A stretch of 64,000 nt of DNA from a virus (Duplodnaviria > Caudoviricetes): the IMG/VR virus record IMGVR_UViG_3300026546_000001, positions 32,001-96,000 of that record, one strand, 5' to 3'. Each line of letters opens with the position of its first letter. Positions within the stretch are counted from its first letter, which is position 1. The notes under the pieces were generated by a model, which made no database searches, was not told where the DNA came from, and saw only the letters and a program-made list of their open reading frames with translations. Shown in pieces: positions 4,549 through 64,000 of this stretch. Both the position numbers and the translations under genes were made by a program.

Positions 4549-4575
4549 ATTACTACATATTTTAATATATACTTT

Positions 4576-5409: not shown

Positions 5410-5430
5410 TAATAAAATACTAATTAGTAT

Positions 5431-6955: not shown

Positions 6956-6999
6956 ATAAATTATTATTTTAAAAATTATATAATATAATCTTATATTGT

Positions 7000-8015: not shown

Positions 8016-8047
8016 ATATTATATATTAATACATAAAATTATAGTTT

Positions 8048-8626: not shown

Positions 8627-8655
8627 ATTACTTATATTTTTTTATAAATAAAAGT

Positions 8656-9549: not shown

Positions 9550-9583
9550 AATCTTTTATTTATATTTTGTACATTATATATTT

Positions 9584-9609
9584 AAACAATATTAATATAT
9601 GTTATATAA
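9584..9609 (+). promoter_or_regulatory. Putative phage promoter AAAC-N16-ATATAA upstream of the recombinase
   Basis: AAAC aatattaatatatgtt ATATAA. Confidence 0.6.
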
Positions 9610-9628
9610 AAAATAAAAAATATATTAT

Positions 9629-10846
9629 ATGGCAAAAAAAGCAAAAAAAACAGTATCGTTTAGTGATATTGGAAAAATTGTAGAAGATTCAATTGGTAAA
9701 ACTTCAATTATTTTAGAAGATGAAGAACATTCTACACCAGTTAAATATACTGATACTGGAATTTATTTATTAAACGCATTATTTACAACAGATATATTTA
9801 AAGGTATACCATCTAATAGAATTATTGCATTAGCGGGAGCTGAAGGAGTTGGTAAAAGTTTTCTTTGTTATAATATTGCGCGTGAAGCGCAACGTGATAA
9901 TGGATACGTAATATTTATTGATACTGAATATTCAATTGAAATTGAAAAGTTAAAACCATTTGGAATTGATACAAGTAAAGATAAATTTAAATTAATACGT
10001 TCAAATGTAATAGAAGATATTAAAATATGGTTTGCTAAATTTCTTAAAAATATAAAAGAATTAAAACAAACTGGTGCTGAATTACCAAACATTACAATAT
10101 TTTTAGATTCAGCTGGTGCGTTAGCAAGTAGAAAAGAAATGACTGATGCACAAGAAGGTAAAGAAAAAGCTGATATGACAAGAGCTAAAGTTATGGGAAG
10201 TCTCTTCCGCATTATTATGTCAGATTTAGGTTATTTAGGAATTCCATTAATTGTAACTAATCATACATATTTAACAACAGATTTATTTCCACAAGAAATA
10301 ATGAAAGGTGGTAAAGGTTTGTATTATAGTGCTAGTATTATTGTATTTATGTCTAAAGCTAAATTAAAAACAGGCGCTGAAAGTACTATGGATATGGGGC
10401 AATCTGGAATTGTTGTAACAGCTAAATCAAAGAAAAATAGATTAGCAAAACCTAAACAAATAAAATTTGAAATAGATTTTACTAAAGGTTGTAATCCATA
10501 TAAGGGTTTAGAAGCATTTTGTTTACCACAATTTTTTGATAAAGTTGGTATTGCGAAAGGTAAATTTGATAAAGATGGTAATTTTGTACCAGGTGGAAAT
10601 AAGTGGGCAATAAAGCATTTAAACAAAACAGTTTGGGAAAAACAATTACATACACCTGAAATTTTCACAGAAGATGTATTAAAAGCACTTCAACCAATTA
10701 TTAAAGATTATTTTTCTTATAAAGATCATCAAGAATTAGAAGAAATGTGGAATGAAGTAAAAGATTTAGAACAAGAATATGAACAAGAATTAGAATCATT
10801 AGGAGTTGCAGCAGATGATATATCAGATACTGATTTATTTGAATAA
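9629..10846 (+). CDS. uvsX: UvsX/RecA-like recombinase
   Basis: Walker A GAEGVGKS, FIDTEYS, IFLDS, KADMTRAK, VTNHTY, MKGGKGLYYSAS (T4 UvsX-like); acidic tail. Confidence 0.88.
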   Translation: MAKKAKKTVSFSDIGKIVEDSIGKTSIILEDEEHSTPVKYTDTGIYLLNALFTTDIFKGIPSNRIIALAGAEGVGKSFLCYNIAREAQRDNGYVIFIDTEYSIEIEKLKPFGIDTSKDKFKLIRSNVIEDIKIWFAKFLKNIKELKQTGAELPNITIFLDSAGALASRKEMTDAQEGKEKADMTRAKVMGSLFRIIMSDLGYLGIPLIVTNHTYLTTDLFPQEIMKGGKGLYYSASIIVFMSKAKLKTGAESTMDMGQSGIVVTAKSKKNRLAKPKQIKFEIDFTKGCNPYKGLEAFCLPQFFDKVGIAKGKFDKDGNFVPGGNKWAIKHLNKTVWEKQLHTPEIFTEDVLKALQPIIKDYFSYKDHQELEEMWNEVKDLEQEYEQELESLGVAADDISDTDLFE

Positions 10847-10866
10847 TACATTATCATAATTTTTTT

Positions 10867-10901
10867 AAAAAAATCGCTAATTTAAATTAGTGATTTTTTT
10901 T
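10867..10901 (+). terminator. Intrinsic terminator
   Basis: AAAATCGCTAATT...AATTAGTGATTTT stem followed by a T-tract. Confidence 0.65.
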
Positions 10902-10925
10902 ATATAATAAAAATAGCTTTAAGTA

Positions 10926-11288
10926 ATGCAACATTCTATATTTGAAACAGATTTTTTTAAAAAAATCGAAAAAGATCCAAAAGCAATTACAATACCATAT
11001 ATGAAATCATATGGGCCAATTATAACTGATGAAAATATAAATAAATTACTTGAAGAACTAATGATAGATTATTTTGTTAAAAAAGATTTAATTCAACAAC
11101 ATTATAAAGAATATAAACCATTAAGAAGTGATTATTATCAAATGAATTTTTTTGAAAAAGAATTACGATCTAGAATTGGTAAACAACAATTAAAAATGGA
11201 CTTTTTAAATATTGATCCTACACATAATATAAAAGAACAATTTGAAAAAATAATTAATGATAATAATTTTGAATATTTTCTCATATAA
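10926..11288 (+). CDS. Hypothetical protein
   Basis: 120-aa ORF. Confidence 0.6.
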   Translation: MQHSIFETDFFKKIEKDPKAITIPYMKSYGPIITDENINKLLEELMIDYFVKKDLIQQHYKEYKPLRSDYYQMNFFEKELRSRIGKQQLKMDFLNIDPTHNIKEQFEKIINDNNFEYFLI

Positions 11289-11384
11289 TTAATATATTAA
11301 AATATAATTGTTGAATAAAAAATAATTTATTATTAATATTATATATAATGATTAATTTAATATATAAAAAAACTATAAATACGA

Positions 11385-12116
11385 ATGCCAATTAAAGGAA
11401 AACATCTTGTTGATAATACAATATCACAGGAAAAATTAAATATTACAACAGACTCGGTTATTTATGATACAGATATAACTAATAAAGAATACGTTGATTC
11501 TGTAATTGATGATCAAGTATCTAATATTAGATATAATAAATTAAATAGAAACATGCAGGCTTTAAACGCAGGAGTTGGAGACAAAGCGTGTGAAGATGCA
11601 ATCATTGAATTTAATATTACTAACGTTAGAGTAACAGTTAATGGTGTTGATGTAAATGTTGGTCCTGGACTTGACTGCTATTTTTCAAATGATGGTGGTA
11701 TAACAGCAAAAGAATTAGGACAAGAACAAAAGGGTGATTTTTTATACTGGAATTCAAGCAAATATATGCTAGATTCTTCTGATGAAATTGATTTTATTTA
11801 CCTAGTTGCGTATGAATATTTAGTTGAAGGAGCAAATGGAACTATTATAGTTGATCCAACATATGACAATGTTGTAGTTGAATACACTGGAGATCCTGGT
11901 ACCACATCAATTGTTACGATAGAAGATGAAGATTTTATTGTAGGAAATGTGAATGGTAATTTTGTTTGGGATATTGGTGGAACAAATGAACATACATTTA
12001 CATCTGTAAATGAATCTATAGTTCAAAATATAAATGGAAATGATTATACTATTTGGTATGATGGACAAGGTAGTTTAATATTCAGTGTTGCTAAAGGTAA
12101 TCACACAATGATTTAA
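11385..12116 (+). CDS. Putative virion structural protein (short form)
   Basis: Beta-rich and acidic, with an NKEYVD fibre-type motif; in frame with the downstream BACON array across TAA 12114-12116. Confidence 0.7.
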   Translation: MPIKGKHLVDNTISQEKLNITTDSVIYDTDITNKEYVDSVIDDQVSNIRYNKLNRNMQALNAGVGDKACEDAIIEFNITNVRVTVNGVDVNVGPGLDCYFSNDGGITAKELGQEQKGDFLYWNSSKYMLDSSDEIDFIYLVAYEYLVEGANGTIIVDPTYDNVVVEYTGDPGTTSIVTIEDEDFIVGNVNGNFVWDIGGTNEHTFTSVNESIVQNINGNDYTIWYDGQGSLIFSVAKGNHTMI

Positions 12117-13481
12117 TATTATTTAAATGCAACTCCTACAACATTTAATTTATCAAGTTCATCATCAAATAATAATCAAATTAATATAAATAGTAATGTT
12201 AATTGGTCTGCAAGCGTAACACAAGGTTCTGATTTTATAACATTAAATGTAACAAATGGCACAGATGATGGAACAGTTACGTTTAATGTTAATGAAAACA
12301 CTAATGTTGAAACAAGTAGATCTGGAAAAATAACAATTGTAAATGATAGTGGAATTGTTGATGATATTATTATAACAATTAATCAAGAAGGAGAATATGC
12401 GTATCTTAGTGTTGATCCTTCTAGTTTTTATTATGATAGTAATTCTCATTATAATGAAGATATATCAGTGTCATCAAATAACGATTGGACTGTAGTGTCT
12501 GGAGATGATATATGGATAAATTTAAGTAATGATAGTGGAAGTGGAAATGGAACAATTAGTTTTGATATAGAAGAAAATACATCAACTGACAATAGGAGCA
12601 CGTATATATATGTTGAAGATTCATTTGGAAATAGTGAGAATATTACAATTGATCAAGATGGAGCACCTGCATACATAAACGTTAGTCCAACATATTTTTC
12701 TGTACCTTACAATTCTAGCAATGGAGAAATAATTAATGTATCATCTAATAATTCTTGGTCAGCATCATGTAATGATTCATGGATAACTATAACAACTGCA
12801 AGTGGAAATAATGATGGATCTATTGATTTTGATATATCAGAAAATACATCGACTGATAGTAGAAATACGTATATATATGTTGAAGATTCATTTGGAAATT
12901 ACCAAACAGTTAATATTGATCAAGACGGTGCACCATCCTATATAAGTGCTAATCCAACATCATTTTCGTTTGATTACAATAGTCAAAATGGTCAATCAAT
13001 TAGTATTAGTTCCAATGATACATGGAATGCATCATGTAATGATTCATGGATAAATATTCAAACAAGTAATGGTACTGGAAATGGTCCAGTTGATTTTGAT
13101 GTTGAAGAAAATACAGATACAAGTTCATCTAGATCAACAACAATAGAAATAAGTACAAATGGAGGTGAATCAGTAAGTGTTACAATTGATCAAGATCCAG
13201 CGCCAGTTCAATTAGATGCTTCACCTCAATCGTTTTCCTTTGATTCATCTAGTCATTATGATGAATATATAGATATCACATCAAATACTAGTTGGAGTGC
13301 ATATTCAAATGAATCTTGGATTTTAGTTAATACTTCTTCAGGAACTGGAAATGGTTCAGTTGATTTCAATGTCGAAGAAAATACAGATCAATCTCAACGA
13401 AGTGGATCAATTGTGATATCTGATGATGATGGAAATATTAGTATTACTGTTACAATTGATCAAGATGGAGCAGTTATTTAA
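12117..13481 (+). CDS. Five tandem BACON (Ig-like) domains; in-frame extension of 11385..12116
   Basis: The frame is open from 12117. Five repeats of about 90 aa (YLxVxP...SNxxW...WI...GxGxG.V.F.V.EN....R...I...Q). The track's GTG start at 12468 falls inside repeat 2. Confidence 0.8.
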   Translation, partial: YYLNATPTTFNLSSSSSNNNQININSNVNWSASVTQGSDFITLNVTNGTDDGTVTFNVNENTNVETSRSGKITIVNDSGIVDDIIITINQEGEYAYLSVDPSSFYYDSNSHYNEDISVSSNNDWTVVSGDDIWINLSNDSGSGNGTISFDIEENTSTDNRSTYIYVEDSFGNSENITIDQDGAPAYINVSPTYFSVPYNSSNGEIINVSSNNSWSASCNDSWITITTASGNNDGSIDFDISENTSTDSRNTYIYVEDSFGNYQTVNIDQDGAPSYISANPTSFSFDYNSQNGQSISISSNDTWNASCNDSWINIQTSNGTGNGPVDFDVEENTDTSSSRSTTIEISTNGGESVSVTIDQDPAPVQLDASPQSFSFDSSSHYDEYIDITSNTSWSAYSNESWILVNTSSGTGNGSVDFNVEENTDQSQRSGSIVISDDDGNISITVTIDQDGAVI

Positions 13482-13483
13482 TA

Positions 13484-13891
13484 TTAAATTTCTATATAAA
13501 CACTATACAAATGGTACGACATCATAGTCGTACCATTTAATGTTGCTATACCTATAGGTTCAAGTGTAGCATATTCTAATGCGTCATAAAATGCTTGTTG
13601 TGTAATAAACTTATTTGTAATATATTTAATTTTACCATACACGCCAATATTATCTTTAAAAGGATAAAATAATCCAATAACATCAAATAAACTTAATTCT
13701 AAATTTTCAGGTTTTGAATGTGTTATAAATATATTAGAAGCAAATATAACATTTTTTGAATACTTTACATCAGTATATAATTCACTATAATAATCATCAA
13801 ATTTAAAAAGATACATTTTTTCATAATCTTCAAAATGATTATCATAAAAGAATTCATTATTATTGTTTGTATATCTAATATATTTTTTCAT
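13484..13891 (-). CDS. Hypothetical protein
   Basis: Follows nusG by 3 nt. Confidence 0.55.
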   Translation of the reverse strand: MKKYIRYTNNNNEFFYDNHFEDYEKMYLFKFDDYYSELYTDVKYSKNVIFASNIFITHSKPENLELSLFDVIGLFYPFKDNIGVYGKIKYITNKFITQQAFYDALEYATLEPIGIATLNGTTMMSYHLYSVYIEI

Positions 13892-45525: not shown

Positions 45526-45526
45526 T

Positions 45527-45552
45527 AAACATTTTTAAAATTATTAATATAT
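45527..45552 (+). promoter_or_regulatory. Putative phage promoter AAAC-N16-ATATAT upstream of the glycosyltransferase/thyA operon
   Basis: AAAC atttttaaaattatta ATATAT. Confidence 0.5.
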
Positions 45553-45573: not shown

Positions 45574-46683
45574 ATGGATAATATTACAATAACCCATAAA
45601 GCTGGAGCTAAAGTTGAAATAAAAGGTAATAGTAACAAACAATATCATATACAATTTATTGATGATGATACAAATGAATTAATAAATGAAGGTACTATAA
45701 ATGTAAATAGGTCAATTTCAGCAAAACCAGAATATTATATAAAATGGAGAATAATAATTTCTACTAATAATAAAGTAATATCTGATACTGTTTTAAATTT
45801 AGAAGGTAAAAATGTATTAATATCATTTGAATCATCTGCATTAGGTGACACTATATCTTGGATACCATATGTTTTAGAATTTAAACGTAAACATAAATGT
45901 AATGTGTATTGTGCAACATTTAAAAATAAATTATTTGAAAAAGAATACCCAGAAATAAATTTTATAACAAGAAGCACTGTTGTACCAGATGTAATGACTG
46001 TTTATAGAATTGGTTGGTTTGGAAGAGGTGAAAAAAATCACAGAAATAAAATTGATTGTAGAACAATTCCATTACAACAATTAGTATGTGAAACTTTAGG
46101 TTTAGAATATAAAGAAATTAGACCAAAAATAACATTTGATAAACGTGCTCCATTAGTTAATAATTCAAATTATGTTGCAATTAGTACAGATTCAACTGCT
46201 CAAGCAAAATATTGGAATAGAAAAGGCGCGTGGCAAGAATTAGTGAATTGGTTAAATGATCGTGGATATACTGTAGTTAACATGAGTAAACAACAAAATA
46301 ATTTAAAAAATGTCGTTGATAAAACTGGTATAGCACCTTTAGAAAATTTAGTTAATATTGCACAGTATGCAAAATTTTATATTGGTTTAAGTTCAGGATT
46401 AGCATGGATGTCGTGGGCATTAGGTAAAAAAGTTGTAATGATAGCAGGATTTACTGCAAAATGGTTTGAATTTCAAGAAAATAATTATAGAGTTCGCAAT
46501 GATTCAGTTTGTAACTCGTGTTTTACAGATACAAGATATTGGTTCAACAGAGGAGATTGGATGTGGTGTCCTGTACATAAAGGAACACCAAAACATTTTA
46601 TATGTCATAAGTCTATTACACCTGAAATGGTAGAGGAAAAAATTATTCAACTTGAACAAGATTTAGAAAAAGAAAAAGCATAG
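45574..46683 (+). CDS. GT-B glycosyltransferase, autotransporter heptosyltransferase (Aah/TibC)-like
   Basis: SSALGDTISW, STAQAKYWN, YIGLSSGLAW, VVMIAGFT, Cys cluster VCNSCF...WCP.H...FIC..SIT. Confidence 0.8.
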   Translation: MDNITITHKAGAKVEIKGNSNKQYHIQFIDDDTNELINEGTINVNRSISAKPEYYIKWRIIISTNNKVISDTVLNLEGKNVLISFESSALGDTISWIPYVLEFKRKHKCNVYCATFKNKLFEKEYPEINFITRSTVVPDVMTVYRIGWFGRGEKNHRNKIDCRTIPLQQLVCETLGLEYKEIRPKITFDKRAPLVNNSNYVAISTDSTAQAKYWNRKGAWQELVNWLNDRGYTVVNMSKQQNNLKNVVDKTGIAPLENLVNIAQYAKFYIGLSSGLAWMSWALGKKVVMIAGFTAKWFEFQENNYRVRNDSVCNSCFTDTRYWFNRGDWMWCPVHKGTPKHFICHKSITPEMVEEKIIQLEQDLEKEKA

Positions 46684-46685
46684 TT

Positions 46686-47009
46686 ATGGCTGATAATATA
46701 CATCCATTTGACAAATTGCCAGAAGATACAGCTATTAATAAAATTATAGATGAATTTGATTTTGAATTAGTTAGATCATATATGATGATTAATAATTGGA
46801 AAGTTGCAACTGCGCATGATTATGATTTAGTTATACCAACTATAGATGATTTAAAAAAAACTGCTCGTGATATATTAGAAAGCGCCGAAGCAATAGAAAA
46901 TAATCCTTCATTTGTGTATACTGCAGGATTAATGGCAACAAAATGGGGTGATGAGTTATCATTATATTTTATAATAGAAAATAAAACGGAAATAAGAAAA
47001 TTTGAATAA
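46686..47009 (+). CDS. Hypothetical phage protein
   Basis: 107-aa ORF within the operon. Confidence 0.55.
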   Translation: MADNIHPFDKLPEDTAINKIIDEFDFELVRSYMMINNWKVATAHDYDLVIPTIDDLKKTARDILESAEAIENNPSFVYTAGLMATKWGDELSLYFIIENKTEIRKFE

Positions 47010-47012
47010 ATT

Positions 47013-47696
47013 ATGAAAATATGGATTACAATACCAACGTGGAATAGGAAAAAAACTGCAGAAACAATTATTCCAATTACATATAAACATAAAAAAGATC
47101 ATTTTTTACATATTACAGATGATTATTCAACTGAATATAACGCATTTGAATTATTTAAAAATCATGCTGATCAAATTGAACGGCCACCTAAAAAATTAGG
47201 AGTTCAATTATTAAGATGTTGGGAATTTAGAAAGTTTTTAGAAACAGATTATGATCTTATTTATATGACTGATTCTGATGCATTACATGATCCTAATTTT
47301 ACTGATAGATTATTGGAATTATATGATGTAACAAAACATCCAGTTTGTATATACAATACAAACTGGCATATACGCGCAACAATAAATTACAATGAAAAAT
47401 ATAATTTTTATTGGCGTCGAACAATGCCAGGTGTTAGTCAATTATATGATAGAAGTATGGTTGAAAAGATAGTTAAAGAATTAGATAAACGAGGTGATCC
47501 AGTGTATGCATGGGATTATAGAGTTTTAGAATACTTAGGAATGAAAAGTGCAACTAGTAAAACTTCATACATGCAACATTTTGGAGGACCTGGAAGTATA
47601 CATAATAAAACTTTAACTAGTGATACTGCGCTTGAACCAACTGAATATTTAAAAAGTATGTGGAATCCAATATTAAAACAAATTACAAAAAGATGA
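47013..47696 (+). CDS. GT-A (GT2-like) glycosyltransferase
   Basis: ITIPTWNR, DDYSTE, DxD motif MTDSD, WD, QH.G; paralogue of 48844..49572. Confidence 0.8.
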   Translation: MKIWITIPTWNRKKTAETIIPITYKHKKDHFLHITDDYSTEYNAFELFKNHADQIERPPKKLGVQLLRCWEFRKFLETDYDLIYMTDSDALHDPNFTDRLLELYDVTKHPVCIYNTNWHIRATINYNEKYNFYWRRTMPGVSQLYDRSMVEKIVKELDKRGDPVYAWDYRVLEYLGMKSATSKTSYMQHFGGPGSIHNKTLTSDTALEPTEYLKSMWNPILKQITKR

Positions 47697-47998
47697 AAGA
47701 CGGTGAAGAATTTCTACAATCAAAAAAAATATTTCATCATCCATGGGTTTATTCAACAAATGAAAAAACTGGATATGAAATAGCGTCGTTATTAGATGAA
47801 TATGCAGATTATGTTTTAAAAGAACATAAAATAAAGTCAGTTAGCGAACGATTTGATGATGACAAATTTATATTCAATGTCTGTCTTAGTTATCGTCACG
47901 ATTTTGGACTATTAACAGATAAACAACAAAAAGAAATAATTTTTGAATGTAAAGAGTGGATGAGAGCTATAAAAAATAATGAACCATATAATTTATAA
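47693..47998 (+). CDS. Hypothetical protein
   Basis: Probable ATGA-coupled start at 47693. Confidence 0.5.
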   Translation: MKDGEEFLQSKKIFHHPWVYSTNEKTGYEIASLLDEYADYVLKEHKIKSVSERFDDDKFIFNVCLSYRHDFGLLTDKQQKEIIFECKEWMRAIKNNEPYNL

Positions 47999-48001
47999 AT
48001 T

Positions 48002-48847
48002 ATGCATTTTGAATTACAATACTTAAATTTAATAGATACTATTTTAAAAAATGGCATTTTAAAGGAAAATAGAACAGGTGTTAGTGCATACACAATTGCA
48101 CATACAATGCTTCAACATGATATGCAAAATGGATTTCCATTATTAACTACTAAAAAAATGGGAATAAAAAGTATATCCGCAGAACTTGAATTTTTCATAA
48201 AGGGGTTAACTGATAAACAATGGTTAAAGGATAGAAAATGTTCAATCTGGAATGAATGGTGTAATCCTAAAAAAATACCTAATGATTTAACAGATGATGA
48301 AAGAAAAGCTTATCAACTCACTGAAAATGACTTAGGGCCTATATATGGGTACCAGTGGAGAAACTTTAATAGTAGTGGATATGATCAACTTAAACATATA
48401 GTAAATACTCTTAAAACGAATCCAAATGATCGTAGAATGGTATGTTCAAGTTGGAATCCTCTTGAAATGGATAGTATGGCATTACCGCCGTGTCATGTTT
48501 TATGGCATGTTACAGTTATTGGTAATAAATTAAATTTAAGTTGGTTTCAAAGATCTTGTGATGTAGGAGCAGGTATTCCATATAATATGGCATCATACGC
48601 CATATTATTAAAATTGTTAGCTAAAGAATCTAATTTAGAAGAAGGTATAATAACTGGATTTTTATCTGATGTTCATATTTATGAAAATCATGTTGATCAA
48701 CTGAAAGAGCAAATAACTAGAACAAATTATGATGAACCACAATTAGAAATTTTAAATTTTACAAATATATTTAATTGGAAATATACAGATTTAAAACTTC
48801 ATAATTACAATTATCATCCTAAAATATATTTACCAATAGCGGTATGA
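48002..48847 (+). CDS. thyA: Thymidylate synthase
   Basis: NRTG, FPLLTTKK, LGPIYGYQWR, MALPPCH, QRSCD...PYN (dUMP-specifying Asn), DVHIYENH. Confidence 0.96.
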   Translation: MHFELQYLNLIDTILKNGILKENRTGVSAYTIAHTMLQHDMQNGFPLLTTKKMGIKSISAELEFFIKGLTDKQWLKDRKCSIWNEWCNPKKIPNDLTDDERKAYQLTENDLGPIYGYQWRNFNSSGYDQLKHIVNTLKTNPNDRRMVCSSWNPLEMDSMALPPCHVLWHVTVIGNKLNLSWFQRSCDVGAGIPYNMASYAILLKLLAKESNLEEGIITGFLSDVHIYENHVDQLKEQITRTNYDEPQLEILNFTNIFNWKYTDLKLHNYNYHPKIYLPIAV

Positions 48848-49572
48848 AAATAAGAATTGATGTTCCGTGTTATAATAGAAAAAATATAACTGAATTAGTA
48901 TTAAATCAGTTATATAAATTTAAAACTAATAATGCTGATATTAGAATTTATAATGATAATTCAACTGAATATGATAATAAATGGTTAGAACAATGGGGTG
49001 ATGTTATAACATATGAAATGCCTAAACAAGACAAATGGAAAAATATTCACACTATTCGATATAAGGCGTATTTAGATTTTTTAGATGAAGATTATGATTT
49101 TTTATACATGACTGATAATGACGCATTTCATGATCCAAATTATATAAATGTATTATTAGATTTATATTCAAAAACTAAATTACCAGTATGTGGTTATAAA
49201 TCATATTTTATGAGCACTTTTTCTCCACAATATCGTCGCGCAATAAGACTAAATAAAGAATATCATATTATGAAAAATACTAATGGTGGAATTAGTGTTT
49301 TTTTATCTAAACGTTTAGTTGAAAAATTAATGAAATATTATAATAAAAATACTATAATGTGGGATTGTGATACTTGGAAATATTTAGGTAATACATATGC
49401 TCTTCCTAAAAATAGTATATTAGATCATTATGGTAAAGGAGGATTACATAATAAAGATTGGAATTTTGATTACGCACTATATCCAACAGAATATTTAGCA
49501 AAAGTTAGACCATATATAATAAAATATTTAGAAGGTGAAATAACTAAAGAAAATATTGATAATATTATTTAA
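48844..49572 (+). CDS. GT-A (GT2-like) glycosyltransferase
   Basis: VPCYNR, NDNSTE, MTDNDAFHDP, WD, DHYG..G.HN; ATGA overlap with thyA. Confidence 0.8.
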   Translation: MKIRIDVPCYNRKNITELVLNQLYKFKTNNADIRIYNDNSTEYDNKWLEQWGDVITYEMPKQDKWKNIHTIRYKAYLDFLDEDYDFLYMTDNDAFHDPNYINVLLDLYSKTKLPVCGYKSYFMSTFSPQYRRAIRLNKEYHIMKNTNGGISVFLSKRLVEKLMKYYNKNTIMWDCDTWKYLGNTYALPKNSILDHYGKGGLHNKDWNFDYALYPTEYLAKVRPYIIKYLEGEITKENIDNII

Positions 49573-50581: not shown

Positions 50582-50640
50582 TTTTTTTAATTAAATATTT
50601 TTTGTTATATTTGTATCGAATTTTAAAAAACAAAACAATT

Positions 50641-51948
50641 ATGAAAAAAGTTATTGAAGAACTACAATGGAGAGGATTGTTACATCAAACAACACCTGAA
50701 TTAATTAACAAAAATTCAAAAAAAATTACTGTTTATGCTGGATTTGATCCAACTGCAGATTCACTACATATTGGAAATCTTGCGCCAATAATGTTACTTA
50801 AACATTTACAAAACGCAGGTGCAAATATTATAGCTCTTGTTGGCGGAGCAACTGGTATGATTGGTGATCCATCTGGAAAAAAATCAGAAAGAAAATTTTT
50901 AGATGAAAAAACATTAGATAAAAATTTTGATGCAATTCGCAATCAAATACATGAATTACTTCCTAAAAATAATTCAGATGCTAATATACCAAAAATGGTT
51001 AATAACTATAATTGGTATAAAGATATGAATATTCTTTTCTTTTTGCGTAACGTTGGTAAATATATTACTGTTAATACTATGATGTCTAAAGATTCTGTTA
51101 AAAATAGAATTAATGGTGAAAATAATGCTGGAATTAGTTTTACTGAATTTACATATCAATTAATTCAAGCTCAGGATTTTAGGCACTTAAATAATAAATA
51201 TGGTTGTAATTTACAGGTTGGTGGTTCTGATCAATGGGGTAATATGACTGCAGGAATTGAATTGCTTCGTAAAGCTGATAGCGTAGAAGTTGATGCATTA
51301 ACATGTCCATTAATAACAAAAACAGATGGTTCAAAATTTGGTAAAAGTGAAAATGGAAATGTTTGGTTAGATGCAAATAAAACATCACCATATAATTTTT
51401 ATCAATTTTGGTTTAATCAAACTGATGAAGATGCTGCAAAATTTATTAAAATATTTACATTTTTGACAAAATCAGAAATTGATAATATTATTAATGAACA
51501 CAACGCAGCACCACACAAACGTTTATTACAAAAAAGATTAGCAGAAGAAGTAACTAAAATGATACATGGTGAAGAAGGATTACAAGAAGCATTAGTTGCT
51601 ACTGATTTTCTTTTTTCAAAAAAGAATGTTGATATTAATTCATTAGAAAGAATATCAGATACTTCATTTGAAAGAATATTTTCATCTGTTCCAAATACAC
51701 ATATTAATAAAATAATATTTGATTCTGCAACAGACATTTATGATTTATTAAGCGAAAAAACAAATTTTGAAATTTTTAAATCTAAAGGAGATATTCGCAG
51801 ATTAATAAAAAATAATGGTTTGTCAATAAATCTTTCAAAAATTAAAAATGATACAAATTTGACAGATCTTAAAACAATTCATTCAAAATATATTATAATA
51901 CAAAAAGGAAAGAAAAATTTTCACTTATTAAAAATAGTAAATGAATGA
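50641..51948 (+). CDS. tyrS: Tyrosyl-tRNA synthetase
   Basis: YAGFDPTADSLHIGN (HIGH), QVGGSDQWGN, KFGKS (KMSKS), C-terminal S4 domain; probable start ATG 50641. Confidence 0.96.
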   Translation: MKKVIEELQWRGLLHQTTPELINKNSKKITVYAGFDPTADSLHIGNLAPIMLLKHLQNAGANIIALVGGATGMIGDPSGKKSERKFLDEKTLDKNFDAIRNQIHELLPKNNSDANIPKMVNNYNWYKDMNILFFLRNVGKYITVNTMMSKDSVKNRINGENNAGISFTEFTYQLIQAQDFRHLNNKYGCNLQVGGSDQWGNMTAGIELLRKADSVEVDALTCPLITKTDGSKFGKSENGNVWLDANKTSPYNFYQFWFNQTDEDAAKFIKIFTFLTKSEIDNIINEHNAAPHKRLLQKRLAEEVTKMIHGEEGLQEALVATDFLFSKKNVDINSLERISDTSFERIFSSVPNTHINKIIFDSATDIYDLLSEKTNFEIFKSKGDIRRLIKNNGLSINLSKIKNDTNLTDLKTIHSKYIIIQKGKKNFHLLKIVNE

Positions 51949-52618
51949 TACAGCAACATTATTATCAAATTTAACACATGATATGAAATCATATCTGTCT
52001 GTTATAGATGCAATTATATCTAATTTAAAAAATACAAAATTAACAGACGAACAACAATCATTGTTAAATTTGTTGAAACATACTAAAAACTCAATGTGTT
52101 CGATGGTTAATAACACATTGAGTTTTTCTAAATTAGAAAATAAACAACTAACTCTTAAAAATACTATATTTGATATTAACGAATTATTAAATATAACATA
52201 TTCAATGTTATTATATACTGCTAGTAATAATAATGTTAAACTTATAAAAGATTTTAATCATACTATTAAAAATGTTAGGGGTGATAAGATAAGATTTCAA
52301 CAAATTTTAATGAACATTTTATCAAATGCTGTTAAATTTACTGCAAATGGTACTATATCAATAAAAACTTCATCAAAAATCGTTAATAACAATATTGTTT
52401 TTAACTGTGAAATTTCAGACACTGGAATTGGAATTGAAGAATATAAATTAAATAATATTTTTAATAAAAATGTTACATATGATCCAGTTGATGGCACAGG
52501 ATTAGGTCTTTATATTACAAAAGAATTAATTGAATTAATGGATGGTGAAATAACTATTATATCTGAAGTTAATGAAGGAACTACTTTTAAGTTTAATGTT
52601 AAATTTGAATTAATATAA
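51941..52618 (+). CDS. Sensor-less histidine kinase (HisKA + HATPase_c)
   Basis: H box THDMKS, N box NILSNAVKFT, G1 DTGIG, G2 GTGLGL. Confidence 0.88.
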   Translation: MNDTATLLSNLTHDMKSYLSVIDAIISNLKNTKLTDEQQSLLNLLKHTKNSMCSMVNNTLSFSKLENKQLTLKNTIFDINELLNITYSMLLYTASNNNVKLIKDFNHTIKNVRGDKIRFQQILMNILSNAVKFTANGTISIKTSSKIVNNNIVFNCEISDTGIGIEEYKLNNIFNKNVTYDPVDGTGLGLYITKELIELMDGEITIISEVNEGTTFKFNVKFELI

Positions 52619-56738: not shown

Positions 56739-59700
56739 TTATCGTTCATCAAAATGTAATAACCAATCTAATGATCGACCAATTAAATTAACTGCGTCAT
56801 CTTCCAGTAATGTGTCATCTCCATATCCAAAAAACACTCTACGTTCAGGTAATGGTATAGAATTTAAATCATCTTCATCTTTTGCCCATGTTAATAATAT
56901 AGATTTATTTGATTCTAATTGTATCGTACCTAAAACATGTGAATCACTTTCATTTAACGTTGTATAATTATATGTTCGTCCATATTTTGTTAATCTAACT
57001 ATTTGATCTTCGTTATAACCATTTGTTATATAATGACCATTATCTGTTATTTGAATAAAATATTGATAATTTATAGAACTATACTGATCACTTGTTATTA
57101 AATTCATATATGATAATACTTCAACTCTATTAATAAAAATTCCAATTGGAGCTGAATTTAATTTATCTTGTATTCTACTATCTCTTGCATTAGATGAAAT
57201 ATAAATTAAATCATAACCAATCCATGAAGTATTTGTTACGTGAATATCTTTTAATAAAGTTGGTATAAATGATTTAGATTGCATCACATTTATAACTTCT
57301 TTATCAGTTGTATCTAGTCTATTATAATTTTCAGTGTTAACGATATATAATACTCTATATGATTTACCAATATTTTTTGTTACATCTACAAATTGTGAAC
57401 TTGATTGACCTGATAATGCTTGTAAAAAATGATGTTCAATATTAACAATTGAAATATCTCCATCATGTGTATCATCTGAATCAGTTGCATCTCGTGTAAT
57501 ATTAATACCAAGTGAAGTATCAGCTCCAATGACTTCTAATTTTGATGAATGTCTAATTGTCATTATATTAGATACATCTATTGGTATAAAATAAGATTGT
57601 ACAACATTACTTGATGATGGTGCAACATGTGTATTTGTAATTTCACCAATTCTATTATCATAAGCTGGAGCGTCACTTTTATTGGTATATACTTGCATAC
57701 CATCTTGTACAATTGCAGCTCTAATTCTAAATTTAAAATTACCACCATTAGAAGAATTAGTTGTAACTTTTAAAATAAACATTAATGGACTACTTGTATC
57801 AGTAATAGTTGGAAAATTTATAACATAATTAAATGTTGTTTTTTGTCCATTTGGCATAGTATTTAAAGGTCTTGCTATATAAAATTCTTGATCTGCCCAA
57901 TATCCTACACTCGTTCCATTGTCATCAATTGGAGTTTGTTGTAATATAGATACATCAAAACCTGGTATAATATTCCATATTCTAGCTGTTCCAAAATGTT
58001 CTCTGAATCCATCTTCACGATATGCAGTAGTATTAAACATTATACCAACTCTATCAATTGCAGTTTTAGTAGTAAATGCTTTAATAACTCTAATACGTGC
58101 CCAATAATGTTCCTTACCATCATCATATATTGGCGCGTGCGCTCTAAACCACATATCCCTAGCAAAACTATCTATGCGAACATTTTCATATAAAAATTTA
58201 AAAAATCTATTTTTACCAGCAGATGAATATGGATTATGTCCATCAGTTACCATATTATTGATAGAGTTCCAAACTTGATTTTCACCATCATATATTTCAA
58301 GTATTAATTCACCTCCATCATTATGATCTAACGGAGATGCAACATCCATCGTAAATGTATGCCATAATATTGGAACATTATTTAATACACTATCACTTGT
58401 GAAATATAAACAATTATCAACTAATGTCGTATCAAATTCAAATTGTTCATCATTATATACAGTTTGTAAACCATCTGTTCCAGCATCCATAGCTGGTCCA
58501 ATTATTAATAATGTGTTTCTATAATCAGCTGCACCATTACCAACACATACTTTACTTCCATGTAAAGAATTACCAACTAAAACATCATTAAAAAAATAAT
58601 TACCCATTCCAACTGTGTTGAATGTAACGTTAAAATTAGCCCAGTTAATAATATCAACATTAACAATTTTAGTTATGTCAAGAGTTGCTGATGCAACAGT
58701 CATTGAACTATTAAACGATAATAATTGAAATTCTGAAACTTTAGTATCTCGTGAATTTAAATTATTAATTGTTATTGAACTATTATTTCCGGTATTAGGT
58801 ATTTGTAATGTTATATTTTTAGTTTCAATTGTAGTATTAGGAATATTAATTTCTGACATTTCATTACATTTATATGCAATATTAATATTTTGTGCATCTA
58901 TAACATCACCTAACACCGAAGATTGATTATCTGCGTATATAATTATACCAGTATTAAATACATATCCAGTTTTTAATAACACAAACGCCCAATTTGCGGT
59001 TACACACGCAATATCTTGTGTTTCATTAAATATTCCAGCGTTATCAATTAAAAAATTTGACATTGATATAAATGAATTATTCTTTGCATCAATAACTATT
59101 GGATTATTATATGCTTTAACTTCATCAAATTGAATATTCATATTTTGTCCGTCTGATAATATACAAATATCATTATTTTCAAAATATGAATTTTTAATAA
59201 ACGCATAAATTTTATCGTCAATTTGAGTAGTGTTAATATTAATTGCATTTTGAAAGGATACAAAATCACAATTGTAAATATTATACGCTCCCATGTTTTG
59301 TAAATCTATAGCAGTAATATTTTTTGACGTTCCATTTGTACCAGATGTTGTATTTATTCCAACATTTTTTAATTGATCTAAAATTTCATTAGTAAATTTT
59401 TTACTTCGTTTATATGGTAAAATGTATTCATTATTATGTAAAGTATAAATATTATCAATATTAAAATCATCAATATTGCCATAAAAACCAATGTTTAATA
59501 TATCACTACCAACATTTTGTGTAGTTGAACTTAATGATAGAATTGGTTCATCAATATTTTTAGGTAATACTAGTGTTGTAGATGATCCTGATCCAGATAT
59601 ATTAATATATTCATTATCAATAATAAGTGGATTTTCTTCTACAAATATACCTGGTAAAATATCAATTTTAACTGGATGAGAACTTGTTGCTATATTTTTT

Positions 59701-60506
59701 GAATATTCTATTGCTGCTTTAATTGTTCTAAATGGAGAAAACATATTAGGATTCATTGTATCGTCGTTACCATTAATTGATACAACAATTGTTTCAACAG
59801 GTGTTCTATTAAATGCACCAATTTCATATAAATTCCAACCAACTTCATTATTTGTATATACTAATTCATATAATCTATTTTTATAATCTTCAGAATCTAT
59901 AACATAAGTTGATTCTCCGCCATCTATCGGAATATTATTATCTGCAATAAATGTAATTGAATGTGTTACATCTTCAATTAATATTCTATTTCTATCACCT
60001 AATAACGGAGTTGTTAAATGAAATTCAATACTATTATTACTAGCGTTTAATAAATAATATTCACCTGGAGTAGAATTATAAACAGCTTCTGATACTTCTA
60101 TATAACTATCTACTAAATCATCTGTTCTATTTTTTAATATGTCTAATGCTTCTTTAACTGATAACATAACATATCCTGCAGTTCCAGATGTACTATATGC
60201 GTCAGCTCCTGTTGAAAAAGTTTCATAATACATATCTGTTGCATTACCTTCAGGATATGTTACAATTACTTCTTCAGGAATATCCCATTTAGATTTGTCA
60301 TGATTTATTAATATATTATGTAATTCATTTTCTTCATCTTGTGTTAATGGATCTGAAAAATGCCACTTAACAATATTTGGTTTAATAAAGTCAATCCATA
60401 AAAATTGACTATTAAATGGATATGATTGAACAATATTCATTGTTTCTTCATTCAATCCATCTACACTTATTTCAGATTTATCTCTATAATCAATATATTC
60501 TACCAT
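56739..60506 (-). CDS. Large virion protein with probable beta-helix (tail spike/fibre-like)
   Basis: GND......PFRTI.AA...I...PG.F.E opening typical of pectin-lyase-like beta-helices; follows the fibre gene. Confidence 0.65.
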   Translation of the reverse strand: MVEYIDYRDKSEISVDGLNEETMNIVQSYPFNSQFLWIDFIKPNIVKWHFSDPLTQDEENELHNILINHDKSKWDIPEEVIVTYPEGNATDMYYETFSTGADAYSTSGTAGYVMLSVKEALDILKNRTDDLVDSYIEVSEAVYNSTPGEYYLLNASNNSIEFHLTTPLLGDRNRILIEDVTHSITFIADNNIPIDGGESTYVIDSEDYKNRLYELVYTNNEVGWNLYEIGAFNRTPVETIVVSINGNDDTMNPNMFSPFRTIKAAIEYSKNIATSSHPVKIDILPGIFVEENPLIIDNEYINISGSGSSTTLVLPKNIDEPILSLSSTTQNVGSDILNIGFYGNIDDFNIDNIYTLHNNEYILPYKRSKKFTNEILDQLKNVGINTTSGTNGTSKNITAIDLQNMGAYNIYNCDFVSFQNAININTTQIDDKIYAFIKNSYFENNDICILSDGQNMNIQFDEVKAYNNPIVIDAKNNSFISMSNFLIDNAGIFNETQDIACVTANWAFVLLKTGYVFNTGIIIYADNQSSVLGDVIDAQNINIAYKCNEMSEINIPNTTIETKNITLQIPNTGNNSSITINNLNSRDTKVSEFQLLSFNSSMTVASATLDITKIVNVDIINWANFNVTFNTVGMGNYFFNDVLVGNSLHGSKVCVGNGAADYRNTLLIIGPAMDAGTDGLQTVYNDEQFEFDTTLVDNCLYFTSDSVLNNVPILWHTFTMDVASPLDHNDGGELILEIYDGENQVWNSINNMVTDGHNPYSSAGKNRFFKFLYENVRIDSFARDMWFRAHAPIYDDGKEHYWARIRVIKAFTTKTAIDRVGIMFNTTAYREDGFREHFGTARIWNIIPGFDVSILQQTPIDDNGTSVGYWADQEFYIARPLNTMPNGQKTTFNYVINFPTITDTSSPLMFILKVTTNSSNGGNFKFRIRAAIVQDGMQVYTNKSDAPAYDNRIGEITNTHVAPSSSNVVQSYFIPIDVSNIMTIRHSSKLEVIGADTSLGINITRDATDSDDTHDGDISIVNIEHHFLQALSGQSSSQFVDVTKNIGKSYRVLYIVNTENYNRLDTTDKEVINVMQSKSFIPTLLKDIHVTNTSWIGYDLIYISSNARDSRIQDKLNSAPIGIFINRVEVLSYMNLITSDQYSSINYQYFIQITDNGHYITNGYNEDQIVRLTKYGRTYNYTTLNESDSHVLGTIQLESNKSILLTWAKDEDDLNSIPLPERRVFFGYGDDTLLEDDAVNLIGRSLDWLLHFDER

Positions 60507-60524: not shown

Positions 60525-63500
60525 TTATAATTTTAAAATTGATAAACTACTTCCGTTATCTACAGTTTCAAGAGCTCTACCATCAATAACTCTAACATAT
60601 ATAACAACTTTATCATTTGCATTTAATGATATAATAATACTTTTACTAATTGTTCCATATCCATCAGAACTATTTCTATGATAACCAGCTGAAAAAGATC
60701 CATCAATAACATTACTATTTACTTGAATTTCTGCTCCAGATGAAGTTCTACTTGATGTAGTTCCATTTAATGTTATATTATAACCAATTAAATATGTTCC
60801 AGCTGTATTTACTGTTATTTCTGTATCACCTGATGAGAATGTAAAATTAGATCCAACATGTGTTAAACCATCCCACGGAATTGGAGTATTATTTCCATTT
60901 CTAGGAATAGATGTTGTGATTGTATCTTGAAATAATTCTATGTAATTATCTTCTATTTTAGTAACTACCCAATTAGAACCATCCCAATTTAATTTATTAC
61001 CAACCGACGGTGTTACAGTTGTAGTATCTACATCTGCTAATTCATCAATTGACAACGTATTTATATATGATAATACTCTTACATCTGTATAATAAAGATT
61101 ATTTGAACCTTCAGATATATCATCTGTGTCTAATATAACTGTTCCAGTTTCACCATTAACAGAATCAACAGTGTTAACTTCAGCACCATCTTCAATTCCA
61201 GCTAGTTTAGTTCTTTCGGTGTCCGTTATAATTTGGCCACTTCCAGAATCTGTTACGTCATTTAATTCTGTGACTGAATGTGATGAAAGATCAGTTAAAT
61301 CTGTTGGTTTATTTAGTATAAATGCGTCACTACTTGAACTTGTTTCATTCCAATCAGATTGAATGTTAACTTCTGCACCATCTTCAATTCCATCTAATTT
61401 AGTTCTTTCAGTATCAGTGATAATTTTACCTGATCCAGAATCTGTTACGTCATTTAATTCAGTAACTGAATGTGATGAAAGATCTGTAATATCAGTTGGA
61501 ACATTATAAAAATTGTTAAAATCAAATGCATCATCTTCAATATTAGTTGGATCATATACTGATTTTAACATATCTCCATTATTAGTTGATATAGTTGCAG
61601 GTTTCCACATGCTACCATCATATTGTAAAACATTATCAGTAGTTACTCCTGTTGTATCTACATCACTTAAATCATCTAAATTAGTAGGAACTGTTGGTTT
61701 ATTTAATATAAATGCATCACTAGTTGAATTTGTTTCATTCCAATCAGATTGAACATTAACTTCAGCGCCATCCTCAATTCCAGTTAGTTTAGTTCTTTCA
61801 GTATCAGTAATAATTTTACCTGATCCAGCATCAGTTATGTCATTTAATTCAGTAACTGAATGTGATGAAAGATCTGTAATATCAGTTGGTTTATTTAGTA
61901 TTTCTGAATCTCCACTAGTAGAGTTCCAATCTGCATTTACATTAACTTCAGCGCCATCCTCAATTCCAGTTAGTTTAGTTCTTTCAGTATCAGTAATAAT
62001 TTTACCTGATCCAGCATCAGTTATGTCATTTAATTCAGTAACTGAATGTGATGAAAGATCAGTTAAATCTGTTGGTTTATTTAATATAAATGCATCACTA
62101 CTTGAACTAGATTCATTCCAATCAGATTGAATATTAACTTCAGCACCATCTTCAATTCCAGCTAATTTAGTTCTTTCAATATCAGTAATAATTTGGCCAC
62201 TTCCAGAATCTGTGACGTCATTTAATTCAGTAACTGAATGAGATGAAAGATCTGTAATATCAGTTGGTTTATTTAGTATTTCTGAATCTCCACTAGTAGA
62301 GTTCCAATCTGCATTTACATTAACTTCCGCGCCATCTTCAATTCCATCTAATTTAGTTCTTTCAGTATTAGTAATAATTTGGCCTGATCCTGCATCTGTT
62401 ATATTATCTAGTTCTGTTTTATTATTATGTGTGTGTCTTGCATTTGTATTAGCAGATACATCTGAATTTGTTGATACTCTTGTATCTGTATAATAAAGAT
62501 TATTTGAACCTTCAGATATATCATCTGTATCTAATATCACAATTCCAGTTTTACTATTAACAGAATCAACAGTGTTAACTTGCGCGCCATCTTCAATTCC
62601 ATCTAATTTAGTTCTTTCAGTATCGGTGATAATTTTACCTGATCCAGCATTAGTTACGTCATTTAATTCTGTGACTGAATGTGATGAAAGGTCAGTTAAA
62701 TCTGTTGGTTTATTTAGTATTTCTGAATCTCCACTAGTAGAATTCCAGTTTGCATTTACATTAACTTCTGCGCCATCTTCAATTCCATCCAATTTAGTTC
62801 TTTCAATATCAGTGATAATTTTACCTGATCCAGAATCTGTTACGTCATTTAATTCAGTAACTGAATGTGATGAAAGATCTGTAATATCAGTTGGAATATT
62901 ATAAAAATTATTAAAATTAAATACATCATCTTCAATATTAGTTGGATCGTAAACAGATTTTAACATGTCTCCAGCTGTTGAATAATTATCTACTGAAGGT
63001 ACCCAATTAGAACCGTCCCATTTTAAAACATCACCAATACCTGGTGTTATTAAAGTTGTATTTACATCACTTAATTCATTTATTGATGTATTAGATATAA
63101 CAGTTGAAACTCTAGTATCTGTGTAATATAAATTATTTGTCCCTTCTGGTAAATCATCTGTTGTTTGCGGAATATTTATGTTATTTAAATCATTGTTTAA
63201 TTCATCTATAGCAGTTTGAACATCTGTAGAACTTAAACCACTTGTTGAATTATCATATGTTATTAAATCTGCTGAATAATCTCCACTTTCTGCTATAATG
63301 TCTCCAGTTCTTGTGAATACACTTGTCACAAGTGATTCAGGTACGTCTGATGCAACCCAATTAGTTCCATTATATTTCAAGTATTGATCAACTAATACAC
63401 CAACAGTATCAACATTATTTAAATCTTCAATATTAGCTAATGATATTCTAATGTCAACTCTTTCATCTGTGTAATATAGTCCATTTGTTCCTTCAAAAAT

Positions 63501-64000
63501 ATCATTAGTTGTTAAAATAACATCACCAACTTTATTATTAACTGAATCAACTGTGTTTACTTGTGCACCGTCTTCAATGCCTTCTAATTTAGTTCTTTCA
63601 GTATCAGTAATAATTTTACCACTTCCAGCATTAGATACATTATTTAATTCAATAACTGAATGAGATGAAAGATCTGTAATATCAGTTGGAACATTATAAA
63701 AATTGTTATAATCAAATGCATCTGCTTCTATTAAAGTAGGATCATATACAGATTTTAACATATCACCAGAAGTTGAATTTCCTGTTTCATCAATGGATGG
63801 TGTCCAATTTGTTCCGTCCCATTTTAAAATATGACCAACTGAAGGAGAAATTGTAGATGTATCTACGTCACTTAATTCATTAATTGATGATATATTTAAG
63901 TCAGCTAAAAAATATGATCTTTTGTAATATTTGTTAGATGATCCTTCTGGTAAATTATCTGTTGATTTATTAACAAATCTATTATCAAACCGTTGATCAG
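60525..64000 (-). CDS. Long repetitive tail fibre with C1q/BclA-like C-terminal domain (5' end outside the window)
   Basis: The frame stays open from the track's ATG 63761 to the window end. Repeated modules ERTKLxGIEDGA, EGxxNLYYT and LKWDGxNW. C-terminal TAGTYLIGYNI...LNANDKV...LSILKL. Confidence 0.8.
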   Translation of the reverse strand, partial: DQRFDNRFVNKSTDNLPEGSSNKYYKRSYFLADLNISSINELSDVDTSTISPSVGHILKWDGTNWTPSIDETGNSTSGDMLKSVYDPTLIEADAFDYNNFYNVPTDITDLSSHSVIELNNVSNAGSGKIITDTERTKLEGIEDGAQVNTVDSVNNKVGDVILTTNDIFEGTNGLYYTDERVDIRISLANIEDLNNVDTVGVLVDQYLKYNGTNWVASDVPESLVTSVFTRTGDIIAESGDYSADLITYDNSTSGLSSTDVQTAIDELNNDLNNINIPQTTDDLPEGTNNLYYTDTRVSTVISNTSINELSDVNTTLITPGIGDVLKWDGSNWVPSVDNYSTAGDMLKSVYDPTNIEDDVFNFNNFYNIPTDITDLSSHSVTELNDVTDSGSGKIITDIERTKLDGIEDGAEVNVNANWNSTSGDSEILNKPTDLTDLSSHSVTELNDVTNAGSGKIITDTERTKLDGIEDGAQVNTVDSVNSKTGIVILDTDDISEGSNNLYYTDTRVSTNSDVSANTNARHTHNNKTELDNITDAGSGQIITNTERTKLDGIEDGAEVNVNADWNSTSGDSEILNKPTDITDLSSHSVTELNDVTDSGSGQIITDIERTKLAGIEDGAEVNIQSDWNESSSSSDAFILNKPTDLTDLSSHSVTELNDITDAGSGKIITDTERTKLTGIEDGAEVNVNADWNSTSGDSEILNKPTDITDLSSHSVTELNDITDAGSGKIITDTERTKLTGIEDGAEVNVQSDWNETNSTSDAFILNKPTVPTNLDDLSDVDTTGVTTDNVLQYDGSMWKPATISTNNGDMLKSVYDPTNIEDDAFDFNNFYNVPTDITDLSSHSVTELNDVTDSGSGKIITDTERTKLDGIEDGAEVNIQSDWNETSSSSDAFILNKPTDLTDLSSHSVTELNDVTDSGSGQIITDTERTKLAGIEDGAEVNTVDSVNGETGTVILDTDDISEGSNNLYYTDVRVLSYINTLSIDELADVDTTTVTPSVGNKLNWDGSNWVVTKIEDNYIELFQDTITTSIPRNGNNTPIPWDGLTHVGSNFTFSSGDTEITVNTAGTYLIGYNITLNGTTSSRTSSGAEIQVNSNVIDGSFSAGYHRNSSDGYGTISKSIIISLNANDKVVIYVRVIDGRALETVDNGSSLSILKL
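61150..63700 (-). repeat. Coding repeats within the tail fibre gene (boundaries approximate)
   Basis: Nine copies of the (PTDITDLSSHSV)TELND...GSG.IITD.ERTKL.GIEDGA.VN module, several nearly identical at DNA level. Confidence 0.85.

Follow-up and report, generated by a model that had tools for sequence, protein, structure and literature searches.

We analysed a 64,000-nucleotide stretch of phage DNA (the window; bases 32001-96000 of the 158,295-bp IMG/VR virus record IMGVR_UViG_3300026546_000001), in which a compact operon at 45574-49572 on the plus strand encodes a TibC/Aah-type glycosyltransferase (P0001), two paralogous GT-A glycosyltransferases (P0002 and P0003) and a thymidylate synthase. 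Our favoured reading, to which we give a probability of about 0.5, is that the operon would be a protein O-glycosylation module, in which a TibC/Aah-type enzyme and a GT-A enzyme form a conserved pair of a huge-phage lineage. This reading rests on comparisons of sequences and structural models. The first sugar, which P0001 would attach to Ser/Thr hydroxyl groups of a protein that is repetitive or rich in beta structure, would most likely be a heptose supplied as nucleotide-heptose, and P0002 and P0003 would then extend it by one or two sugars. The likeliest acceptors would be the phage's own virion appendages, a non-structural phage protein or a host protein also being possible, and thyA would be a passenger that came to be a fixed part of the operon in a single sub-lineage. 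The donor sugar, the acceptor, the order of action and the timing are thus what we infer rather than observe. An earlier note on this DNA had proposed that the three enzymes build sugars on 5-hydroxymethylcytosine (hmC or 5hmC), with protein glycosylation as its main alternative. Its enzymes, paralogy, operon, promoter class and hmC premise stood, its hmC target became the less likely one, and its alternative is now ranked first.

The three glycosyltransferases and their operon

P0001, a GT-B enzyme of family GT9 (369 amino acids (aa); 45574-46683, plus strand; PF01075), scored 282.7 bits on the NCBIfam model TIGR04414 ("autotransporter strand-loop-strand O-heptosyltransferase"; cut-off 200) and matched TibC (4rap) with E 5e-55, in agreement with the Aah/TibC-like assignment of the earlier note. 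Its AlphaFold (AF2) model had a pLDDT of 94.5 and, in Foldseek, aligned with the TibC protomer at a TM of 0.90-0.91 and an rmsd of ~2 A over 376 columns, the N-terminal beta-barrel included. The runners-up were WaaF and WaaC at TM ~0.5, and the T4 beta-glucosyltransferase (beta-GT) was not among the matches listed. D92, T208, K212 and W278 of P0001 correspond to TibC Asp110, Thr226, Lys230 and Trp305, of which Asp110 is the catalytic base and the other three are sugar and phosphate ligands (PMC4358343). The four-cysteine iron finger was also kept (C313, C316, C332 and C344, equivalent to TibC Cys339/342/358/370), and across 38 relatives all eight residues showed little or no variation. TibC requires the barrel to heptosylate TibA, and its iron finger contributes to the binding of the protein substrate (PMC4358343). 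Taken together, these comparisons show P0001 to be a full-length relative, in sequence and predicted structure, of the bacterial autotransporter heptosyltransferases (BAHTs), and at the active site it is predicted to work like one of them.

Two features of TibC were not kept. Arg286, which contacts the adenine of ADP-heptose (PMC4358343), is Leu259 in P0001, and L, R, I or T occurs at this position across the phage clade. The beta-hairpin thumb, whose hydrophobic Phe265/Val266 tip is required both for the TibC dodecamer and for activity on TibA (PMC4358343), was absent, the segment being 9 residues shorter in P0001 and in 37 of 38 phage and metagenome relatives. The quaternary structure of P0001, as far as its sequence tells, probably differs from that of TibC. 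The likeness to TibC and Aah (BAHT, TIGR04414; PDB 4RAP, 4RB4; PMC4358343) covers the whole-protomer fold, the barrel, the catalytic residues and the iron finger, and at the Pro300 position (TibC numbering) P0001 has Ser, as Aah does. Identity to the E. coli BAHT genes found on plasmids was 31-33%. Unlike TibC and Aah, P0001 is phage-encoded, lacks the thumb, has Leu for Arg286, is partnered by GT-A enzymes and has no autotransporter gene adjoining. In the E. coli control, the BAHT gene lies directly upstream of the gene for its autotransporter substrate and overlaps it; this arrangement confirms the protein-directed role of the TibC family. Isoelectric points (pI) were tried as a sign of DNA binding and were uninformative in this Lys-rich proteome.

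P0002 (227 aa; 47013-47696, plus strand) carries a TDSDA motif and matched phrog_2456, a glycosyltransferase family, weakly, with no match to PF00535 at E 0.01. P0003 (242 aa; 48844-49572, plus strand) matched PF00535 at 28.9 bits, and its start overlaps the thyA stop (ATGA). The two proteins are 36% identical (E 5e-37) and have YMTD(S/N)DA(L/F)HDP in common, so the paralogy that had been noticed earlier is real. The AF2 model of P0003 (pLDDT 93.8) has a GT-A fold, and its Foldseek matches at E 1e-7 to 1e-8 were GnT-I, POMGnT1, SpsA and TarS/TarP; the mimivirus proteins R699/R655 also matched. The fold searches gave generic GT-A matches only, and these did not separate a DNA acceptor from a protein or glycan acceptor. 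Nine residues were invariant in 27 sequences of the family (N11, R12, T90, D91, D93, D97, W173, D174 and H195), which is small, with 28 clusters among 5.8 billion proteins. These data show P0002 and P0003 to be predicted GT-A enzymes with a DxD motif. The motifs of P0003, NR...TDxDA...WD, are not the DDD or EDY/F of the JGT/TarP-like GT-A enzymes acting on phage DNA, and TarP came at rank 19.

Six plus-strand open reading frames (ORFs) fill 45574-49572, separated by 2-3 nt or overlapping by ATGA (at 47693-47696 and 48844-47), as expected of the tight six-part operon that had been described. The operon is headed by a promoter-like motif, TAAAC-N16-ATATAT, at 45526-45552 on the plus strand. The degenerate form TAAAC-N16-WTATAW occurred at 15 sites in the window, when 2.9 +/- 1.75 were expected, and none of 100 shuffles reached 15. 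It precedes the operon, the gp42 homologue (5383), dCMP deaminase, the DnaB-like helicase and the XPD-like helicase, and the claim that operon, gp42 and helicase have a head motif in common was thereby upheld. An exact 13-mer, ATAAACATTTTTA, was found only upstream of gp42 (at 5382) and of the operon. TAAAC-N16-WTATAW is probably an early or middle promoter class of the phage. Operon structure and promoter class show the six genes to be a predicted co-transcribed unit behind an early/middle-type promoter, and from this we infer the timing. As a timing marker, the T4 late promoter TATAAATA was not enriched (61 sites vs 49 expected), and scans for sigma-70 promoters and terminators were uninformative at the 22% GC of the window.

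The fifth gene of the operon encodes a canonical thymidylate synthase (TS), ThyA (281 aa; 48002-48847, plus strand), with a PF00303 match of 305.5 bits; its matches to structures of TS and DHFR-TS reached E 1e-70. Leu occupies the position of E. coli L143, and the catalytic Cys146 and the dUMP-specifying Asn177 are present, together with L-P-P-C, PYN and the terminal IAV. These canonical residues rule it out as a hydroxymethylase.

Distribution of the module and of its relatives

A GT-A gene adjoins the TibC-like gene in the viral sequences that we label L013/G006, L014, L015/L016, LR756504 (L003), G008 (L019) and L122, and five further pairs of GT-A and TibC-like homologues, for which the longest contigs are listed with equal lengths, probably each share a contig. 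The position of thyA is more variable: it lies within the module in one sub-lineage only (window, L014, L115, L116 and L124) and is missing from it in G006, L015, L122, G008 and LR756504. Judged from these gene orders, the conserved unit is the TibC-like plus GT-A pair and not the whole operon. In a quick IQ-TREE analysis of 80 TibC-like domains, the GT-A-partnered proteins (window, L014, L015/16, G006 and G008) formed one clade with an SH-aLRT of 100, and the pair of LR756504 has similar identity and the same local gene order as the clade. The tree and the gene orders show the pairing to be ancient and monophyletic.

Two members of this lineage bear directly on the role of hmC. LR756504, a complete genome of 636 kb, has the module and a single TS-family gene, which is canonical, the two diagnostic residues being Leu and Asn. 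G008 (348 kb, with terminal repeats and rated 100% complete) has the module and zero TS-family genes. Neither has a gp42-like gene or a Tet_JBP match, the Tet search having been run without a positive control. Since these clade members lack a gp42-like gene, a function shared across the clade cannot depend on hmC. The search was extended to 45 viral records of at least 40 kb with a TibC-like gene, in which all TS matches were canonical (>=174 bits, some split) except one 66-bit match in G046. Among the 11 TibC-bearing phage genomes that are at least 84% complete (G015, G018, G025, G035, G039, G053, G046, G008, LR756504, LR756501 and Mel-JY01), a gp42-like gene was present in one. The glycosyltransferases (GTs) occur independently of gp42, in the wider family and in the orthologous clade. 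The earlier note had named such independence as grounds for refuting its proposal that the sugars are built on hmC, and the proposal is weakened accordingly.

The wider family of phage TibC-like proteins is large, with at least 591 loci in IMG/VR, yet no publication on such an enzyme from a phage came up in a literature search. We clustered the proteins of 85 such loci with flanks of 6-10 kb. A virion gene (fibre, sheath or tube) lay in the flanks of 35 of the 85. The top neighbours were S74-chaperone/collagen-like tail-fibre proteins (25 loci; Ser plus Thr up to 44%), and other common ones were tail sheath (16), DUF6165 (16) and tail tube (14). Most phage TibC-like genes encode fusions of 700-1450 aa with GT4 and FkbM-methyltransferase domains. 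The fusions that lie beside collagen-like/S74 fibres resemble P0001 in the TibC-like domain (40-47% identity) and are thumb-less too, and they are also accompanied by further GTs or methyltransferases, suggesting glycan extension. Unlike those fusions, which mostly sit in structural blocks, P0001 is a stand-alone protein with a GT-A partner family of its own and is encoded among early/middle genes.

Two loci illustrate the wider family. In L011 (IMGVR_UViG_3300032116_009585), 8832-13889 encodes three TibC-family ORFs (918, 218 and 711 aa) and, directly after them, a collagen-like protein of 953 aa whose Ser+Thr content is 44%, a clear pair of enzyme and candidate substrate. In the Microcystis phage Mel-JY01 (PP395634, L005), a 1226-aa "methyltransferase FkbM" at 4750-8430 ends in a TibC-like domain with 43% identity to P0001. 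It adjoins a "structural protein", with a 639-aa "cytidylyltransferase like protein" close by, and the annotation of the record omits the glycosyltransferase.

Protein, DNA or host target

The phage is a predicted maker of hmC. The window encodes a homologue of T4 gp42, the dCMP hydroxymethylase, outside the operon (5431-6138, plus strand), which matched the T4 enzyme 1b49 at E 2.3e-61. It keeps the equivalents of the catalytic Cys (Cys148) and of Asp179, the D-F-I-C and FND motifs, and an acidic residue where E. coli TS has L143. Its score was 210 bits to T4 gp42 vs 41 bits to MilA, the best structural match reported for RB69-type 5-hydroxy-dCMP synthases (PMC13326640). The match and the diagnostic residues make a convincing case that the phage encodes a genuine T4-type dCMP hydroxymethylase, and the hmC premise of the earlier note is sound as a prediction. 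The record is ~34% complete by CheckV and is therefore a fragment of a huge phage.

Given this enzyme, P0001 could sugar the hydroxyl of 5hmC in replicated DNA, with the GT-A enzymes extending the sugar to a di- or trisaccharide, which would make a TibC-derived class of DNA glycosyltransferases. We consider this rather unlikely. The gp42 homologue is genuine, but the orthologous module occurs in LR756504 and G008 without a gp42-like gene or a Tet_JBP match, and gp42-like genes are as rare among the complete or nearly complete TibC-bearing phage genomes as stated above. Although the operon has its promoter class and the 13-mer in common with gp42 and is surrounded by genes of replication and nucleotide metabolism, 40 kb separate it from gp42, which has no recognisable GT adjoining it, whereas DNA GTs in known systems adjoin the TS homologue, the proven clusters consisting of a kinase, a TS homologue and a GT (PMC13326640). 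The thyA gene is kept inside the module across its sub-lineage, but it is a plain TS. The 158-kb record, representing 34% of the genome, has no match to GT4-type GT-B enzymes (PF00534; control valid), and a search of it for the T4 beta-GT (PF09198), run without a positive control, was also empty, which leaves the operon as a candidate source of hmC sugars; yet the structural matches of P0001 after TibC were the WaaF and WaaC mentioned above.

The products expected of the operon (a mono- to trisaccharide, possibly with heptose) match ones already reported for 5hmC. Pyle et al. (2023; bioRxiv 10.1101/2023.12.21.572611) described 5hmC bearing one or two heptoses, as well as other mono- to trisaccharides, with a metavirome cluster, and both the existence of multi-GT clusters with such products and the repurposing of phage GTs related to lipopolysaccharide (LPS) enzymes to act on 5hmC favour a DNA target. 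Since heptosyl- and diheptosyl-5hmC are already produced, heptosylated hmC is not a new base, and the "undescribed base" of the earlier note was an overstatement; a TibC-type enzyme making heptosylated hmC would be new. The operon resembles the systems for 5hmC and 5-hydroxycytosine (T4 alpha/beta-GT; the RB69 and DLP3 arabinosyltransferases, PMC13326640) in being a multi-GT operon with GT-B and GT-A enzymes in an hmC phage. The metavirome DNA GTs are JGT/TarP-like GT-A and beta-GT/BshA-like GT-B enzymes (bioRxiv 10.1101/2023.12.21.572611). Unlike the DNA GTs, the GT-B enzyme of the operon is GT9/TibC-like and not beta-GT/GT4-like, its GT-A enzymes have DxD and apparently not R...DDD...EDY/F, the operon does not adjoin the TS homologue, and the module occurs also in hydroxymethylase-less phages.

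A TibC-derived enzyme may nevertheless have been recruited to DNA elsewhere. In G046 (IMGVR_UViG_3300043425_001539; L112 is its bases 141000-159000), a co-directional cluster on the minus strand at ~4251-14280 of L112 encodes a GT25, a C5-methylase, a GT32-like protein, a thymidylate-kinase-like protein, a gp42-like protein, three small ORFs, a TibC-like protein and a GT2-TPR protein. The gp42-like TS homologue is 34% identical to that of the window and has Asp at both diagnostic positions. The TibC-like protein, encoded 1.4 kb away across the three small ORFs, is a 288-aa catalytic domain without the barrel, and in the IQ-TREE analysis it lies outside the clade of the window, at the end of a very long branch (1.62 substitutions per site). 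By analogy with known clusters, this looks like a cytosine glyco-hypermodification cluster using a TibC-derived GT-B. The barrel, the iron finger and a short branch, all kept by P0001, set it apart from this truncated copy. A more specific form of the DNA proposal is that a GT9/BAHT-type enzyme starts a heptose-based glycan on 5hmC that two GT-A enzymes extend, as a third, unrelated origin of DNA glycosyltransferases of which G046 would be a second example; we judge this unlikely, and the less probable of the two statements.

The second locus that favours a DNA role for part of the module is G007 (IMGVR_UViG_3300037067_009128, L018), where 218-13105 encodes ThyX, a divergent TS homologue, two C5 DNA methylases, a primase, a Methyltransf_24 protein, a small kinase-like protein and a DUF2334 protein, with no TibC-like gene. 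A 687-aa GT-A plus methyltransferase fusion, homologous to P0003 (36% identity), lies ~6 kb from the TS homologue, in which Asp occupies the N177 position. Together these genes may form a DNA-modification cluster.

The protein O-glycosylation reading draws on the whole-protomer likeness to enzymes with protein substrates and on the company of fibre genes in the wider family. In the window, a block of ~30 kb of large Ser/Thr-rich fibre and spike genes begins 7 kb downstream of the operon. It contains a fibre of 1370 aa with 23% Ser/Thr (60525-63998 on the minus strand, to 64637 in the record), built of ~50-residue repeats with a BclA_C (C1q/TNF-like) C-terminal domain, and a 1255-aa protein (56739-60506, minus strand) with no Pfam match; these two ORFs open the block, whose large minus-strand ORFs are apparently structural. 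The fibre was considered as a conserved acceptor and rejected, being absent from other module-bearing phages.

Several further points weigh against a protein target. No acceptor protein was identified. The gene after P0001 encodes a 107-aa acidic ORF and not a beta-helix or repeat protein or an autotransporter, and there are no Gly-X-Y collagen-like fibres in the 158-kb record. Because the thumb is deleted and Arg286 has become Leu, the oligomeric state, the donor and the acceptor mode may differ from those of TibC. The phage is a predicted hmC maker for which no other GT was found in 34% of the genome. The module stands behind an early/middle-type promoter among replication and auxiliary genes, and throughout the clade it has neighbours of these kinds and never adjoins virion genes. 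As to the donor, no CTP_transf_like (HldE-type) match for ADP-heptose synthesis was found in the 158-kb record, GmhA not having been searched for.

The same placement is what a module for host takeover could show, in which a host glycan or a host protein (such as an adhesin on the surface or a factor of transcription or translation) would be glycosylated, blocking superinfection or redirecting metabolism. Bacterial BAHTs act in the cytoplasm on secreted adhesins (PMC4358343), and the early/middle-type promoter, the distance from structural genes throughout the clade and the auxiliary or host-like neighbours in all lineages (ClpB/ClpP, NusG, RNase R, TyrRS, a sigma-like factor and a rhomboid protein) would suit such a role. 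The enzymes, on the other hand, have no signal or membrane segments pointing to envelope glycans, the association of the wider phage family is with virion genes, and there is no nameable candidate host protein. No case in which a TibC-like enzyme of a phage modifies host proteins is known to us, and we regard a host target as quite improbable, the least probable of the targets weighed here.

If phage TibC-like enzymes act on virion or other proteins, protein O-heptosylation by phages would be a widespread and unstudied layer of their biology, with possible effects on how stable the fibres are, on host range and on recognition by the immune system. If the clade acts on hmC, it would be a new enzyme family for DNA hypermodification, with enzymes useful to label 5hmC. 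Either way, the three enzymes of the operon make a compact set, open to expression and direct assay. The comparison across phages also shows how little gene neighbourhood by itself (thyA, the shared promoter) says about a DNA role.

Other genes of the operon and the window

The small ORFs that separate the GT9 gene from the GT-A gene were considered as a conserved partner or acceptor and were rejected, looking unrelated across lineages in a by-eye comparison. In the window this ORF is the acidic 107-aa one (46686-47009, plus strand; pI 4.5), which has no Pfam, PHROG or NCBIfam match; it is kept in the close relative L014 (110 aa), and the ORFs at its position in L013 and L015 look unrelated, judged by eye. 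The other small ORF of the operon (47693-47998, plus strand; 101 aa), whose ATG overlaps the GT-A stop as ATGA, had been listed as 112 aa from a GTG at 47660 and probably starts at the ATG at 47693; its L014 counterpart is 81 aa. A small minus-strand ORF ends the operon and is present in L014 too.

The TAAAC-N16-WTATAW sites, ~five-fold enriched, include 5383, 6976 (minus), 9583, 32465 (minus), 40148 (minus), 45526 and 54513, and the genes behind them belong to replication, nucleotide metabolism and auxiliary functions. In the window, GC is ~22%, and the T4-like replication and nucleotide genes comprise a family-B polymerase fragment, a RecA-like protein, RNase HII and dCMP deaminase. Topoisomerase II subunits, a primase-like Toprim protein, the DnaB-like and XPD-like helicases and a ClpB-like ATPase are encoded as well. 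The family-B polymerase is represented at 415-1593 and 1976-3142, both on the minus strand; the match spans only model positions 145-422 in a 388-aa ORF, as against 825 aa for the L110 homologue. The gene of the window may be split over two ORFs or interrupted.

Near gp42, a 282-aa ORF upstream was examined as a hidden GT and rejected; it has no Pfam, PHROG or Atlas match and is not kept beside gp42 elsewhere. The closest contig-borne relative of gp42, 52% identical to that of the window, is in L108 (IMGVR_UViG_3300028388_003280, 698-6711), where one operon runs, ahead of gp42, through a GT4-type GT-B (402 aa), a 232-aa ORF, a DegT/EryC1 aminotransferase and another GT4. L108 is a candidate amino-sugar hmC modification pathway, and it has the usual layout of GT4 beside gp42 that the window does not have.

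Downstream of the glycosyltransferase operon, a full tyrosyl-tRNA synthetase (TyrRS) is encoded at 50602-51948 (plus strand) and is overlapped at its end by an ORF at 51941-52618 (plus strand), which encodes the core of a histidine kinase (HisKA plus HATPase_c) and lacks a sensor domain. In L015, too, a TyrRS gene lies near the module.

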